Positions 58,109 through 64,000 of a stretch of 64,000 bases of DNA are shown here, piece by piece. The notes under the pieces were generated by a model. That model was not told where the DNA came from and did not search any database. It worked only from the letters and a program-made list of their open reading frames with translations. Origin of the DNA: a virus (lineage: Duplodnaviria; Caudoviricetes); IMG/VR virus record IMGVR_UViG_3300029305_003510, positions 166,856-230,855 of that record. One strand, written 5' to 3'. The translations under genes and the position numbers were made by a program. The number at the start of each line of letters is the position of its first letter. Positions within the stretch are counted from its first letter, which is position 1.

Positions 58109-58219
58109 ATCATTTTCGATCAGATCCTCCTGATCCCAACATTATTATAGAATACCATTGGTATCGATCTTACCAAGGGTGTCCGCCAAAAATCATAAAA
58201 CAAGAAGGAGGCAATCGAT

Positions 58220-58756
58220 TTGAAGACTATTCTCTTCGCGAACGGTACTTCCGTAGAGTACGTTCAGCGTATCGAAGATTCTGATTATATTCAGGGCGCT
58301 GATCGTTCCATCCTGGAGTTCCGTTTCGATCCTACCAAGATGACCCTCGATCAGATTGACAAGCTCTTTACTACCGAGGGTTGCGCTCGTCTGCGTCTCT
58401 CTGAAACCTACACTATTCCCGTTCCTGTCTATGAGGATCAGGATGTTGAGGTTCCCGTCCTGGATGAGGAGGGTAACGAGACCGGTGAGACTACTACCGA
58501 AACTCAGTCTGTCCTGGTTCGTACTGACGAGGAGGAGCATACCGACGAGTTCGTCTATGACGGCTATTGTGTCCGTTGTATCCTGAGTCGTCAGCTGTTC
58601 CCCACTCATACCGATAAGGGTCTGGTGGACAAGGAGTTCATCAATGTTCGTATGGCTCAGCGCACCTATGCTGAGGAGCAGATCGCTCTGTTGGCTGATG
58701 AGAACACCAATACTCAGCTGGCGCTGGTTGAAGTCTACGAAATGATGCTGGGCTAA
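58220..58756 (+). CDS. Tail-fibre-associated protein
   Basis: AAGGAGG RBS; C-terminus TQLALVEVYEMMLG typical of genes preceding CD1375/XkdX-like genes; AACA-N6-TA at 58138. Confidence 0.6.
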   Translation: MKTILFANGTSVEYVQRIEDSDYIQGADRSILEFRFDPTKMTLDQIDKLFTTEGCARLRLSETYTIPVPVYEDQDVEVPVLDEEGNETGETTTETQSVLVRTDEEEHTDEFVYDGYCVRCILSRQLFPTHTDKGLVDKEFINVRMAQRTYAEEQIALLADENTNTQLALVEVYEMMLG

Positions 58757-58780
58757 TTCAATAAGGAGGTACCTACAATT

Positions 58781-58885
58781 ATGGCTAAGATTTATGCCGA
58801 TCTGATCCGTAAGGGTCTCAAGACTATTGACCAGGTGCCCGCCCGCATTCGTGCTGAGGTTGAGGCTCTTCTGGCAGGGGAGTGA
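58781..58885 (+). CDS. CD1375-like small protein (34 aa)
   Basis: MAKIYADLIRKGLKTIDQVPARIRAEVEALLAGE; AAGGAGGT RBS. Confidence 0.7.
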   Translation: MAKIYADLIRKGLKTIDQVPARIRAEVEALLAGE

Positions 58886-58894
58886 GAGTAAGTC

Positions 58895-59071
58895 ATGTGG
58901 ACTAAACTCAAACTCTATATTCTCACCTATCTTGTAAGAAAGGAGATTAAAGACATGGCAGTTGTGTACGCTACTCTGATCGTCAAGGGCAAGAAGACCC
59001 TGGACCAGGTTCCTGCTCTGATCCGTCCTCAGGTCGAGGCGATCCTGGCTGATCTGGAAGTCGAGGTCTAA
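58895..59071 (+). CDS. CD1375-like small protein, second copy (alternative start 58955)
   Basis: MAVVYATLIVKGKKTLDQVPALIRPQVEAILADLEVEV. Confidence 0.7.
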   Translation: MWTKLKLYILTYLVRKEIKDMAVVYATLIVKGKKTLDQVPALIRPQVEAILADLEVEV

Positions 59072-59137
59072 TCTCTTCGCCCGCCACCCATTGTGGTTAA
59101 ACTATCCCACTATGGTATTTGGCCAAGTATCAAAGAA

Positions 59138-59172
59138 GACACCCCGGGGATTGTCCCCGGGGTGTCCTTTTA
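59138..59172. terminator. Bidirectional terminator
   Basis: GACACCCCGGGGA-ttg-TCCCCGGGGTGTC between convergent genes. Confidence 0.8.
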
Positions 59173-60507
59173 TTTCAATCTATCAATTTCAACTGTTCCA
59201 GCATATCTTTTCTCTCTACCTTCGCGGATCAGATTGATCGGCTGCAGATTAAGATAAATATTCGCTGTATAAAGCTTATTCATCTTAGGATTCAACAACT
59301 CCAGTGTACCATCTTCATGGAGAATGATTCCCGTTTCGATCATAGATCCATTTGGGTAAACACGGAGATGAATCATATCAGCAATCTTTCCTCCCTGATC
59401 GATCCATTCTTTGATCACTGCATAGATATCTTTATCAAAATCAGCAATGAAAGGAAGGATATTAATTTTCGGATCATCGCCTTCCTGAACTTCAAGATCA
59501 ATTCTATTGGAAAGAGTGTAACCATTGATCTCTGTAGGCCAGTCCATATCCGCATAGATTGGAGAAATAAAGGTAACAGCTTCAGGATCTTCAGGAATCC
59601 CTTTATCAAATTTACCCACATATTCTTTTCGGGTCAAGAACAAAAATTCTGCAGGAAGATCGGCAGTCAGGATAAAGGAATCAACAATACGTGCACCCCA
59701 TTCAATCGCTTCACTGTTCTCAGTGGAATCAGCAGAAGGGAAGCTTGGAACTTCTACATGGATATTCAATTCCTGCTCAAAATAGAACTGACATTGTCCA
59801 TTGACTAAAACTCGTTTAGTGATTGGGTATCGAGAATGTTGATTGACAAAGGTCATAAACTCTTCTGATTTCCAATCAAGCCCATGGAAGTTAGCGATAT
59901 TCTGAATGTGCCTCATTGGAATCATGAATGGTACTCTTCGAGAGAGACTGAATCGAGAATTATGTCGAATATCCATAATCAGCTTATTCCGTGTATTTGC
60001 CTGCCGATTAGTCGATTCCTCCATGATCATAACGTCAAATTCAATTCGAATGCGATTTCGGCGATACCAAAGCTCAAGAAGATCTGTTTTCATAATCTCA
60101 AGAGAGTATAGAAGTTTGGCACCAATATGATCATTAAGAGGATCGATGAAGTTATAACGGTTCAACATATTCTGTGCGAATAGGGAGTCGTCTACAACTT
60201 CAGGCTGCCGTGGATCGATAACTAAGAATGGTTTATCTTGCTTATAGATAGCTTTCATAAAGCTTTTGAACTCTTTGAAACTTGACTGAGTTTTAATTCG
60301 AACCAACTTAAAATAGTCCGGTTCAAAGAAAGACTGAAACCATTCTGTAAATACAGCCACCATATTGGCTGTATTATACGAGAATTTCTGAATCTTTCTA
60401 TCGAAAACAATATCAGTGTCATCAGGTTTATCCTCAATTGGATAAACCCGGCCATTATTACCGTCATCAGGAATAAAATCTCCTGGAGCATAAATTCGTA
60501 GTGCCAT
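59170..60507 (-). CDS. Probable virion structural (neck/tail completion-like) protein
   Basis: ATG 60507 after AAGGAGG; about 445 aa, beta-rich; function is inferred. Confidence 0.45.
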   Translation of the reverse strand: MALRIYAPGDFIPDDGNNGRVYPIEDKPDDTDIVFDRKIQKFSYNTANMVAVFTEWFQSFFEPDYFKLVRIKTQSSFKEFKSFMKAIYKQDKPFLVIDPRQPEVVDDSLFAQNMLNRYNFIDPLNDHIGAKLLYSLEIMKTDLLELWYRRNRIRIEFDVMIMEESTNRQANTRNKLIMDIRHNSRFSLSRRVPFMIPMRHIQNIANFHGLDWKSEEFMTFVNQHSRYPITKRVLVNGQCQFYFEQELNIHVEVPSFPSADSTENSEAIEWGARIVDSFILTADLPAEFLFLTRKEYVGKFDKGIPEDPEAVTFISPIYADMDWPTEINGYTLSNRIDLEVQEGDDPKINILPFIADFDKDIYAVIKEWIDQGGKIADMIHLRVYPNGSMIETGIILHEDGTLELLNPKMNKLYTANIYLNLQPINLIREGREKRYAGTVEIDRLK

Positions 60508-60541
60508 AATAGTAAACCTCCTTATCTTTATATCTGTGTCC

Positions 60542-62047
60542 TCAACTATCTGTATCATAGATAGCGTCGAATAGCATGTCCCCGGAAGATCTCAATGCAC
60601 TCTTTGCTTTAGACTTCTTTCCAGGTTTACGACGTTTCTTAATATTAGCTGGGTGGAATGGATTATCATAATCATTATTATGATTAGCAAGAAAACTTTG
60701 AAATCCGGCCATCAGATAATATTCAGGATTATTCTTAACCCGTTCACGTTTATCAGCCTCCCAAGCTTCTCTCTTTGTAATCTTACGAGGCATAAGCTGC
60801 ACAAACCCATCCACATCCCGCAGAGTATTATCTTCTCGGATTTTAAGCTTAAAGAAACCATCTTCATCAAGGTTTGTCCAATCGATACAAAGGTCTCGGT
60901 AAGATTCGACAATTCCCTCTTGTTCAGCGATCATCTTTTGCGCTTTAGCATATGCATTTTTGGCTTTATCACTATTACCATGAATCGCATACGCATGCCA
61001 TGATTGAAGAGAATCTTTTACATTGTCAGTCGTAATGCGACCGTGCTTAATCATCTTTACTTGGCGCTTTGTTCTTTTCAACATTTTATTGATACTCTTA
61101 CTACGGATATATGTATTAACCTGATGTGTATTAGCATCATACACTACATGATATCCCAGGAAACAAACACCCTGAGCAAATGGATGAATATGAGTCTTTG
61201 GATTCAATTTCATGAGAAGAATATCTTCAACATATTTCTTAATTTCTTTATAGCAATACTCAAGATATTCTCGACTCTCATGAATCATATAGAAATCATC
61301 CATATAACGACCGTAGCACTTAATATGTAGTTTCTCTTTGATAAAATGATCGAGCACGTTTAAGTAATATACAGCAAGCCACTGAGATGTCTGAAATCCA
61401 ATACATAACCCTTTACCAGGCTTTTCTACATATGGATTGATATCAGCTGTACATGCATCGATTACCAGTCGAATTAGTCTTGATAATTTCTTATCTACTG
61501 GTAGATTCTTAACCATACTCCAACAGACTTCATGATCAATATTGTAGAAAAACTTTGTAATATCACATACTAGAACCCATCCCCTGTCGGTCCAGTCTAC
61601 ACTCTTTGCATGGATTCGCATAAATCGTTCCAATCTTTGTAGACCAAGATGTGTACCTTTCTTTGGCTGACTGGCATAGTTATCGTATATCATCTTATTA
61701 CCAAGAAGATGTCTCAATACATTCTTGGATAATAAGTCTTGTACAATTTTATCTTCAAATCCATCGGCAACAACTTCCCGTTCTTTTGGCTCATATACTT
61801 TGAAACGATTCAGATCACCAAATTCATATTTCTCACCACATAGCTTCTTATAAAGCTTACGAAGATTTTGATACATGTTCATATGATACTGAATCGTAGA
61901 AGTTCGATATATTTTACCCTTACGAACGTGTTTATATGATTTCAACAGATTCTGAAAAGTGACGACATCCTCAAATCGTATCACTTCACCATTCTTTAAT
62001 CGCTGAAGAGGAATCGGAACTTCCTCACGTTTTGAATATTTGCCCAT
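60542..62047 (-). CDS. DGR reverse transcriptase with a C-terminal extension
   Basis: KEREV, YASQPKKGTH, CDITKFF, GLCIGFQTSQ (DGR-type GxxxSQ), RYMDDF, FLGY. Confidence 0.95.
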   Translation of the reverse strand: MGKYSKREEVPIPLQRLKNGEVIRFEDVVTFQNLLKSYKHVRKGKIYRTSTIQYHMNMYQNLRKLYKKLCGEKYEFGDLNRFKVYEPKEREVVADGFEDKIVQDLLSKNVLRHLLGNKMIYDNYASQPKKGTHLGLQRLERFMRIHAKSVDWTDRGWVLVCDITKFFYNIDHEVCWSMVKNLPVDKKLSRLIRLVIDACTADINPYVEKPGKGLCIGFQTSQWLAVYYLNVLDHFIKEKLHIKCYGRYMDDFYMIHESREYLEYCYKEIKKYVEDILLMKLNPKTHIHPFAQGVCFLGYHVVYDANTHQVNTYIRSKSINKMLKRTKRQVKMIKHGRITTDNVKDSLQSWHAYAIHGNSDKAKNAYAKAQKMIAEQEGIVESYRDLCIDWTNLDEDGFFKLKIREDNTLRDVDGFVQLMPRKITKREAWEADKRERVKNNPEYYLMAGFQSFLANHNNDYDNPFHPANIKKRRKPGKKSKAKSALRSSGDMLFDAIYDTDS

Positions 62048-62321
62048 AGTATATTGATTCCTCCTTATAAGTCAATGCGGCAGTAAAAGTCCCTACCATC
62101 CCACACTAACACCGAGGTGTCAGGTAGGACGGTAAGAAACAACCACACATGGTACGCGTGGGCGGATAGAACCGTCCAGGTTTGCATGCATGTGCCAAGA
62201 GTTAATTCCCCGAACATATTTCAGCTCAGGAAGGATAAAGCTCCCTTCGATACTCAACCGATTTCGGTGTTCCGGCCGCCCCGGATAACACCTACTTTTT
62301 CTATAAGCACCGAATCAACCA

Positions 62322-62412
62322 GGGGCCGGAACCCATTAGAATTGCTGGGATTGTTGTTGTTGATGCTGCCGTCAGTATTCACGTTGTACACGTTACTAGA
62401 GCTGTTGGCGGT
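62322..62412 (-). repeat. DGR template repeat (TR)
   Basis: 91 bp with 10 AAY codons and 29 adenines on the minus strand; matches the VR at every non-A position. Confidence 0.95.
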
Positions 62413-62524
62413 TTTGTTGAGCCAAACCCTTTATAACCATGTTATCAGTTTCCAACCGCCAACTATACAGCATCAACAACGTATAAATATCACGAGCCCC
62501 TGGTTGATCAGACTATCTTGGTTA

Positions 62525-63505
62525 CTATTCATGCGATGGTACTTTATAAATCCCACGAAGATCTTCTGCACTGATATTAATTGGAGCCGAAATACAAGCT
62601 TCTTTCACAACAGCACTGCGATTAATCAAATCTGCTACGATATTATCAGAAGGATCATCACTTGTCTGTAAATCAAAAATACGATCGGCTACATAGTTAT
62701 TATAGTCCTCATCAGACATACCCATTTCACCGGCAAACATTCGCGGCAGAATAAAAGGCGTCTTTCGACGCTTCAAAACAAAGAATCCTTCACGATCATA
62801 CGCACTACCGTAATAATGTTGCTCAAGAGCTTTATGACGAAAACGATCATCGAAAATAGTTGTCAGAGAATCATCATTATCAAGACCATCGTCCTCATCA
62901 GCTATACTGAGATCGATATCAAACATATCAGGACTAATTTCGATCTTTTCAGTAGCTCTCTTTGTTTTATCCACAATTTTATTAACACTCTCGATAACAT
63001 CTTCTCCAGTGACAAGTTTCGGAGGCTGACCATTTAATACAAGTTCTTCCTCTTTACGTTTCATCTCACGGATCTCTTCTTTTCGTGTTGCTTTCTTAGC
63101 TGCACGGCGGGTGTTACGAGTCCAACGCTTAAAGGAATCTGTCGCTTCATCATACAAAGCAGCTAGATGTCCAGGGTTGTTAATTCGAACAATGCCCAGT
63201 GATATAACCATCAGTGCTTTCACATTCAAAAGATGCTGTAGTGCAGCATTTTGGAACTTGAGAACTCGCTCATAATCAGCAGGTGTGACAATACGTTTAT
63301 ATGCACCATTGTAAACATGACAACAGAGATCGATACAGTTATTTCTCAACGCACTACTTAAGGTATATCGATATGCTTTTGGGAACTGTTTCTCGTTACT
63401 TGTGATTTTGAAGATATATTCAGTCAACTTCTCGCAGGATATGACTACCGAAATACCAGATGGTTTCTTGTTGCTCATATATTTCGGTATAGACATAAAA
63501 TTCAC
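62525..63505 (-). CDS. avd: Avd-like DGR accessory protein (four-helix bundle) with a long C-terminal extension
   Basis: FPKAYRYTLSSALRN...R..FQNAAL..L...W pattern; lies between target and TR; 326 aa. Confidence 0.8.
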   Translation of the reverse strand: MNFMSIPKYMSNKKPSGISVVISCEKLTEYIFKITSNEKQFPKAYRYTLSSALRNNCIDLCCHVYNGAYKRIVTPADYERVLKFQNAALQHLLNVKALMVISLGIVRINNPGHLAALYDEATDSFKRWTRNTRRAAKKATRKEEIREMKRKEEELVLNGQPPKLVTGEDVIESVNKIVDKTKRATEKIEISPDMFDIDLSIADEDDGLDNDDSLTTIFDDRFRHKALEQHYYGSAYDREGFFVLKRRKTPFILPRMFAGEMGMSDEDYNNYVADRIFDLQTSDDPSDNIVADLINRSAVVKEACISAPINISAEDLRGIYKVPSHE

Positions 63506-63522
63506 GCTCCTTTAGTAAATTT

Positions 63523-63534
63523 TACTAAAGTGTT
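63523..63534 (-). promoter_or_regulatory. Late-type promoter AACA-N6-TA upstream of avd-TR-RT
   Basis: AACActttagTA upstream of the avd RBS. Confidence 0.55.
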
Positions 63535-63604
63535 ACAGTGGTGATCATTAAATAATAAATGAAAATTTTTTCGGCGGGCGCTCCGCGCATAAAAATAGTA
63601 AAAG

Positions 63605-63643
63605 ACGGTTCATCCCACATCAACTAAGAGTGGGATGAACCGT
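63605..63643 (-). terminator. Hairpin downstream of the DGR target (terminator and/or DGR recognition hairpin)
   Basis: Perfect 14-bp stem ACGGTTCATCCCAC/GTGGGATGAACCGT with an 11-nt loop; T tract on the minus strand. Confidence 0.65.
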
Positions 63644-63766
63644 AAATGTGTTTATATGTGTTATGCTATATTAGGCTTCTCTTCGCTGCAAAGTCCATTG
63701 TGATTGTCCTTTGGGCCAACCACGACTTTGCCACTCGATTCGCCTGTAAGAGTCGTTACACTCCTC

Positions 63767-64000
63767 TTACGATGCTGCTAAAGCAACATGGGGCCGGAAC
63801 CCAAGAGAAGTGCTGGGAGCGCTGCTGTAGACGCTGCCGTCAGTACGCACGTCGTACACGCCACCAGAGCTGCGGGCGGTAGCAAGCCACCACACTGTGG
63901 CGGTGCCGCTATAATTTGCCACTCTATTAGTAGCAGACATCGCATAGTACAAGAATGTGCTGGAAGCCTGAGTATACGTAGGAATCCAAATCTTATTAGA
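63767..64000 (-). CDS. DGR target protein (CLec-fold C-terminus), 5'-truncated by the window edge
   Basis: Frame open from 64000: SNKIWIPTY...VWWLATARSSGGVYDVRTDGSVYSSAPSTSLGFRPHVALAAS*. Confidence 0.9.
   Translation of the reverse strand, partial: SNKIWIPTYTQASSTFLYYAMSATNRVANYSGTATVWWLATARSSGGVYDVRTDGSVYSSAPSTSLGFRPHVALAAS
63790..63880 (-). repeat. DGR variable repeat (VR)
   Basis: Ungapped 91-bp match to the TR with 17 mismatches, all opposite TR adenines. Confidence 0.95.

Follow-up and report, generated by a model that had tools for sequence, protein, structure and literature searches.

Can a phage of jumbo size carry a diversity-generating retroelement (DGR) that is still at work? The question is raised by a 64,000-nt stretch of viral DNA (hereafter the window), the last 64 kb of the single 230,855-nt virus record IMGVR_UViG_3300029305_003510, whose end holds a reverse transcriptase (RT) gene, a template repeat (TR), an avd gene, a variable repeat (VR) and the 3' end of a target gene. 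A preliminary description, made from the letters of this DNA, had interpreted these parts as an apparently active DGR, and the RT, Avd, TR, VR and target were all identified in the present analysis. The answer reached here is that the element is very probably a complete and currently working DGR of the BPP-1 type, resident in a circularly closed jumbo phage of 230,553 bp that is related to AR9 and PBS1. On the minus strand, the order of the parts is target (with the VR), terminator, avd, TR, structured RNA and RT. The main parts are the following (window coordinates):

60542-62047, minus strand: DGR reverse transcriptase, 501 aa, with a core at residues ~25-360 and then a lineage-specific C-terminal extension of ~140 aa
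62322-62412, minus strand: TR, 91 nt, with 29 adenines and 10 AAY codons, encoding TANSSSNVYNVNTDGSINNNNPSNSNGFRP
62525-63496, minus strand: Avd homologue, 323 aa from the ATG at 63496, between the target and the TR
63767-64000, minus strand: 3' end of the target gene; the whole gene encodes 375 aa and is read across the contig junction (positions 69-1196 of contig C1 of this genome, minus strand, G000:C1:69-1196(-); locus L001)
63790-63880, minus strand: VR, contig-end haplotype, with 17 adenine-site differences from the TR

The repeats and proteins of the cassette

The TR and the VR align without gaps over 91 nt of the minus strand, and each of their 17 differences is at an adenine of the TR, changed to G in 10 cases, to C in 5 and to T in 2; there is none at another base. 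The chance that 17 random mismatches would all fall on the 29 adenine sites is 4.5e-11. The coordinates, the gapless 91-bp alignment, the 17 mismatches on adenines and the counts of 29 adenines and 10 AAY codons given in the preliminary description were all reproduced, as was the 3' end that it had found common to both repeats: a 13-nt GC-rich block, GGGTTCCGGCCCC, is identical in the two copies (62322-62334 in the TR). In the next 13 nt beyond this block, the TR and the VR are partly alike and non-adenine differences are present. The open reading frame (ORF) 63767-64000 (minus strand), which reads ...WWLATARSSGGVYDV...LGFRPHVALAAS*, has the VR in frame at its 3' end; the VR ends 20 nt upstream of the stop codon of the target. 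The arrangement is thus that of a DGR, with the VR at the 3' end of the target ORF and a shared GC-rich block, resembling the initiation of mutagenic homing (IMH) site, beyond which the repeats diverge. The TR could encode ~1.5e17 protein variants, and a stop codon is reachable at none of its codons. A scan of the whole genome with the non-adenine positions of the TR, a search for further VRs that had been proposed earlier, found a single VR locus, seen twice because the contig ends overlap.

The RT bears two motifs that do not vary in 25 relatives, IGFQTSQ (residue 216) and YMDD (residue 248), in agreement with the GxxxSQ and YMDD motifs noticed earlier and with the pairing of a motif 4 of the form [I/L/V]GxxxSQ with YxDD that defines DGR RTs. 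It matches Pfam RVT_1 (E 8e-14) and phrog_1423 (E 1.5e-96), and its best match among solved structures is the Bordetella bRT (8ub7_A, E 5.6e-27), which scores 98 bits, the next class reaching 36 bits; RTs of group II introns and retrons lie far behind bRT. A 462-aa gene at 59170-60558 (minus strand), whose sole match is phrog_21946 (unknown function), overlaps the RT stop by 17 nt and may be co-transcribed with the cassette.

An avd gene had been placed between the target and the TR, and this is where the homologue at 62525-63496 is found. The protein is made up of a four-helix bundle (residues ~15-154), an acidic linker, a short peptide, DREGFFVL, to which we return below, and ~80 further residues. 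Its residues 23-155 match phrog_3206, annotated as 'Avd protein of DGR' (E 5e-9), and a Pfam search of the homologue returned no match. The structural model has four long helices at residues 15-154; Foldseek ranks the Avd-family pentamers 2gsc and 2rld at the top and matches the BPP-1 Avd chains 8ub7_C and 8ub8_C with TM scores of 0.77-0.81. The cassette therefore holds a four-helix-bundle Avd, and its 323-aa form is present on 18 contigs in the protein database.

The target was cut by the end of the contig, and the extension that had been called for was obtained by reading the 375-aa gene across the circle junction. From its N-terminal anchor, the protein runs through fibre-like repeats of low complexity (~56-215) to a C-type-lectin domain (221-375), and the VR corresponds to residues 339-368, the last ~30 codons. 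The model of residues 221-375 is of high confidence (pLDDT 94-99). Structural comparison of the lectin domain (VIA-align) gave Z 16.2 to 9qa6_A, a domain of the Thomasclavelia ramosa IgA peptidase (24% identity), Z 9.6 to the Legionella protein Lcl and Z 6-7.3 to ~40 classical C-type lectins. The known DGR target TvpA of Treponema denticola (2y3c_A) is among the top four structural matches (Z 8.4, 119 residues aligned); both proteins have a C-type-lectin fold, of the kind also found in formylglycine-generating enzymes (FGE-like), and C-terminal variable residues, but they are 13% identical, and TvpA is not part of a phage fibre but a lipoprotein of a bacterium. The C-type-lectin (CLec) domain claimed earlier is thus present as the variable domain of the target, which has the C-terminal variable residues of Mtd- and TvpA-type proteins, and the lectin tip would bind a receptor on the host surface.

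In Pfam, the target has only a sub-threshold match to DUF6273, a domain present in 13 of 29 relatives. The middle of the protein resembles tail-fibre repeats found in thousands of proteins, and tail-fibre repeat families occur in the relatives. An N-terminal segment, MA(V/T)LK(E/Q)R..R.N..G.YD(T/V), is common to the target (L001:69-1196(-)) and to target or fibre-like genes of two related loci (L010:3106-4665 and L090:2552-2848(-)), where it stands ahead of unrelated middles; it is probably a virion-attachment piece. The locus L090 holds a second gene with this segment, on the other strand and downstream of its RT.

The remaining elements of the cassette are RNA or DNA structures:

62048-62321, minus strand: structured non-coding stretch of ~270 nt between the TR and the RT
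63605-63643, minus strand: terminator-like site, a perfect 14-bp hairpin with a T-run, after the target stop and before avd
63772-63789, minus strand: short hairpin with a 7-bp stem and a 4-nt loop, directly 3' of the GC block of the VR, with none beside the TR

The stretch at 62048-62321 would be the counterpart of the spacer in BPP-1 and is presumed to form the 3' part of the DGR RNA. The predicted fold of 62040-62530 (minus strand) has z = -6.3 relative to shuffles; it includes a helix in which the 3' end of the TR pairs with sequence upstream of the TR, and a hairpin of ~22 bp directly before the ribosome-binding site of the RT. When L010 and L090 are aligned with it, two-sided changes leave 18 of the 34 predicted pairs able to pair, three sequences being too few for this to be firm, and an Rfam search of the TR-RT RNA found no family match. 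The hairpin 3' of the VR is a possible, if weak, candidate for a target-recognition element. The sequence AACACTTTAGTA, which has the AACA-N6-TA form of AR9 late promoters, occurs at 63530-63545 (minus strand), ~35 nt upstream of the avd start. An AR9-type promoter for avd was considered and rejected: the bare AACA-N6-TA is not enriched genome-wide (71 and 60 per strand vs ~107 expected), and therefore no promoter is claimed.

The closest mechanistic model is the DGR of BPP-1 (mtd - avd - TR - spacer - brt), which has the same gene order and the same adenine-only differences between TR and VR. In both, the VR makes up the last codons of a tail-fibre protein with a C-type-lectin fold, Avd is a four-helix bundle, the RT bears I/LGxxxSQ and YMDD, and an identical GC-rich 3' block is followed by divergence, as in IMH and IMH*. 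The two elements differ in their carriers, since BPP-1 is a 42-kb temperate proteobacterial phage and the present one, AR9-like and of 230.5 kb, encodes RNA polymerases (RNAPs) of its own and lacks a tyrosine integrase. They also differ in their proteins: brt is 28.6% identical to the RT described here, which is ~170 aa longer, Avd has ~128 aa in BPP-1 against 323 aa here, and a DxDGFxxL peptide borne by the RT and Avd (hereafter the tag) is specific to the present lineage. The hairpin after the VR, finally, is weak here. Mechanistically, the element is nevertheless a BPP-1-type DGR, as the other defining features that could be tested were all found.

By analogy with BPP-1, the avd-TR-RT unit would be transcribed and a complex of RT and Avd would copy the TR RNA into cDNA, misincorporating opposite adenines. 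With the GC-rich 3' block common to both repeats as its guide, this cDNA would then replace the VR. As an outcome, the last ~30 codons of a 375-aa protein of the tail-fibre type with a lectin tip would be rewritten at 19 adenine-bearing codons.

Variation of the VR within and between assemblies

Evidence of variation within one assembly comes from the ends of the contig. Nucleotides 1-302 of the record are the same sequence as nucleotides 230554-230855 (window 63699-64000) except for 20 differences, all of which lie inside the VR at TR-adenine positions, between identical flanks of 105 nt and 126 nt. The second haplotype is this one:

contig start, C1:92-182: VR with 13 adenine-site differences from the TR and no difference at any other base

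Both haplotypes thus depart from the TR at its adenines only, in 17 of 17 and 13 of 13 positions. Since the first and last 302 nt overlap, the genome is circularly closed at 230,553 bp, and the assembler passed the VR twice, with two different population variants. It follows that the hypervariability produced by a DGR can mask terminal repeats and break assemblies at the target gene, so that such genomes are recorded as 'linear, incomplete'.

Between samples, the target protein falls, at 90% identity, into a cluster of 15 distinct sequences, which stem from assemblies of JGI and ENA, some of them from contigs of 230,846 and 230,676 nt. Residues 1-340 of the 15 aligned proteins are invariant but for two singleton changes, and the RT is letter-identical on 14 contigs. 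On this constant background, the VR peptides form 12 haplotypes. When the 30 TR codons are considered, 16 of the 19 that contain adenine vary and none of the 11 adenine-free ones does (Fisher 6.7e-6), and every VR residue observed in the 15 proteins is reachable by adenine changes alone. The comparison that had been proposed on reads, a search for variation limited to the TR adenines, was thus carried out on assemblies, where only adenine-bearing codons vary. The DGR is active at the population level; the recent activity that had been supposed earlier is backed by the two VR haplotypes in one assembly and by the 12 among 15 near-identical target proteins. No exact match to the VR flank was found in IMG/VR, in a set from which near-identical records are excluded.

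A run of AAY-derived codons (residues ~356-359, alignment columns 356-360) has one additional codon in five of the 15 target variants. The extra codon suggests either that some strains have a TR with an additional AAC or that slippage occurs on the AAC run during copying.

Could these differences be the remains of an element that no longer works? The VR would then have been diversified in the past, and its variants would be old alleles inherited by separate strains. Such a history would fit the recurrence of some haplotypes across assemblies (the contig-end haplotype is found again in P0136), and the comparison covers assembled sequences, not reads. Yet old alleles would be expected to show non-adenine changes in the VR, which has none, as well as changes elsewhere, whereas ~340 residues outside the VR show two singleton changes and the RT is identical on 14 contigs in the face of 12 VR haplotypes, two of them in one assembly. 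The RT, Avd and TR are, moreover, all intact, and a fossil DGR appears highly improbable. Alternatively, the VRs at the two ends could be two physical copies, either in the terminal repeat of a linear genome or in paralogous target genes, instead of population variants. An overlap of 302 nt does exceed the usual k-mer overlap of assemblers, and IMG/VR labels the record as linear. The identity of the 105-nt and 126-nt flanks, with differences confined to the VR, speaks against two copies, as does the closure of other assemblies of this phage at similar lengths (230,846 and 230,676 nt), and far more than two haplotypes exist across samples. We consider this explanation very unlikely and, even if it were correct, both copies would still have been diversified by the DGR.

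Several observations weigh against a working DGR that diversifies a virion protein on a closed genome. T339, S342 and Y347 have adenine-bearing codons and are constant in all 15 proteins; selection on structural residues may explain this constancy. The evidence of activity consists of two assembled haplotypes within the sample and, across samples, of comparisons at the protein level only. As for the location of the target in the virion, a PHROGs search of the target found no family, and weak matches to virion proteins were obtained only for its upstream neighbour. The hairpin 3' of the VR is not significant (z -0.76) and has no clear counterpart in L010 and L090. Finally, the IMG/VR record is labelled linear and 89% complete, a label that can be put down to the imperfection of the end repeat, which is due to the VR differences.

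The phage and the lineage of its reverse transcriptase

The carrier is an uncultured phage of gut or rumen type and a distant relative of AR9 and PBS1 with split RNAP genes. The closest large terminase subunits (TerL) are those of the Bacillus phages Goe21, BpSp and PBS1/AR9 and of Staphylococcus jumbo phages (33-36% identity). Three window genes match split RNAP beta/beta' families (phrog_3015, phrog_25005 and phrog_2986), and the beta'-type subunit is ~30% identical to those of AR9, Goe21, BpSp, Listeria phage LPJP1 and Staphylococcus phages. The genome thus combines a size above 200 kb, a split beta/beta' RNAP and a related terminase, the attributes of AR9/PBS1-like phages, at a distant degree of relationship. 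The preliminary description had spoken of a jumbo phage with its own RNAPs, and this holds: at 230.5 kb, the phage has a terminase and RNAP subunits that are nearest to those of AR9/PBS1 and Staphylococcus jumbo phages (30-36%). That it is 'phiKZ-type' in the narrow, nucleus-forming sense is something that we infer.

A tyrosine integrase was not found in the genome. A small resolvase-type serine recombinase domain (E 7e-32) is encoded in a 346-aa frame at G000:C1:11262-11696 (plus strand), the only such gene. Within the window, ~1 kb at 58200-59250 has a GC content of ~50% in a genome of ~37% GC, with competing ORFs on both strands. It lacks a match in PHROGs and terminates at an 18-nt near-palindrome (59133-59171); this stretch could be a structured RNA or a foreign gene.

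Misassembly of the cassette onto the jumbo contig was a concern from the outset; in that case, the cassette would stem from the host or from some small temperate phage. The closest RTs in deposited phage genomes, in the best 85 of 129 matches, do all come from phages below 140 kb, and the contig breaks within the target gene of the cassette. The sequence around the cassette nevertheless ties it to this genome: there is a 17-nt overlap between the RT gene and the phage gene that follows, the GC content of the cassette coding sequences (35-39%) equals that of the surroundings, and the RT and Avd share their tag with about ten other proteins across the genome. Fourteen contigs carry the exact RT, and contigs of 226-329 kb carry related ones; the cassette recurs in independent contigs of ~230.7-230.8 kb. 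A related genome from IMG/VR (287.7 kb, complete according to CheckV, TerL 60% and RNAP subunit 52% identical) holds, in its interior (123-137 kb), a cassette with the same layout: a target with a C-terminal VR, avd, TR and RT, with an adenine-only TR/VR pair. With native GC content, independent contigs and the same order in this relative, misassembly can be regarded as extremely unlikely.

A search of 5.8 billion proteins recovered a family of related RTs of 405-650 aa with 42-81% identity, many of them on contigs of 178-329 kb. The phylogeny of the RT, an analysis proposed earlier, was reconstructed with FastTree from 121 RTs and midpoint-rooted for drawing only. All 17 RTs encoded on contigs of at least 125 kb (up to 329 kb) group with the present RT in one 73-member clade (support 99), and 45 RTs of small-phage type are separated from this jumbo-associated clade by a long, fully supported branch. 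Since this lineage holds every RT of the tree that lies on a contig of at least 125 kb, the DGR appears to be an old property of this phage group rather than a recent acquisition. The same cassette layout is seen in L090, a 4.9-kb metagenome contig. A diagonal scan for TR/VR pairs in relatives found them in L010 and L090; no pair was visible in the locus L170, which is cut by the end of its contig.

Related phage contigs have been binned in a metagenome-assembled genome (MAG) of Ruminococcus flavefaciens (G002, contigs C66 and C9; loci L251, L253 and L255), which holds at least two related jumbo phages, with TerL 63% and RNAP subunits 63% and 77% identical. This binning gives a weak hint that the host is a Ruminococcus-like member of the Bacillota.

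Among the matches listed, the nearest RTs in deposited genomes belong to DGRs of gut Bacillota phages (the Faecalibacterium phages FP_Brigit and FP_Toutatis and uncultured human-gut phages), with 33-40% identity over the RT core. They share the DGR motifs and the gut setting, but their phages measure 30-62 kb, and their RTs have 340-375 aa, lack the C-terminal extension and carry the tag in 0 of 45 cases. RTs of ~500 aa are also known from cultured Staphylococcus jumbo phages of the AR9 type (MarsHill gp206 and its relatives). Those proteins have been described as retron-like, with a long N-terminal domain and without Avd, TR, VR or IMH (bioRxiv 10.1101/2020.12.14.422802; PMC10638138), and Staphylococcus phages do not appear among the deposited genomes in the best 85 of 129 matches of the present RT. 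The RT of the Staphylococcus jumbo phages is a different retroelement.

A shared peptide and the meaning of a jumbo-phage DGR

The tag is carried three times by the cassette:

60794-60817, minus strand: RT-tail copy DVDGFVQL, conserved in the alignment of relatives
60845-60868, minus strand: RT-tail copy DEDGFFKL, conserved in the alignment of relatives
62774-62797, minus strand: Avd copy DREGFFVL, invariant in four diverged Avds

Across the ORFs of the genome, 13 matches to D-x-[DEN]-G-F-x-x-[LIVM] are found, against 0.5 expected from shuffles, and the proteins that bear it besides the RT and Avd, about ten in number, are spread over the genome. Of the 76 RTs on the jumbo side of the tree, 51 bear the tag, and no small-phage RT does. 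One tentative interpretation, which we hold to be rather doubtful, is that DxDGFxxL is a putative docking tag put on about ten or more unrelated DNA and RNA enzymes, and that through it the DGR would be wired into the DNA-handling network of the phage. The hub to which it would dock, proposed to be clamp-like, was sought in a protein atlas among the 245-aa and 247-aa ORFs beside the DNA-polymerase genes, with no usable match. If the interpretation were true, the particle formed by the RT and Avd would be brought to replicating phage DNA and mutagenic retrohoming would be coupled to phage replication, which would explain how new VR alleles become fixed during individual infection cycles of a lytic phage that never enters lysogeny. 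With their tags, the RT and Avd offer a testable link between retrohoming and the replication apparatus of the phage, and are the single feature that could make this DGR more than a known type.

DGRs are best studied in small temperate phages and crAss-like phages. For large phages, no report of a DGR in a jumbo phage was found in the searchable literature that mentions both topics. A review of 224 jumbo phages reports no DGR-type lectin (FGS) domains (PMC7824862), and neither the 2021 global survey of DGRs nor a 2026 paper on gut jumbo phages links DGRs with jumbo phages. Large metagenomic catalogues of DGRs may well contain such cases without comment. The mechanism of the element is thus known, and it is the host lineage that is unreported for DGRs in searchable papers. 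The finding means that targeted hypermutation of a fibre tip is used by an entire lineage of phages (180-330 kb) that encode transcription machinery of their own, and it provides a concrete handle on the evolution of host range in gut jumbo phages.

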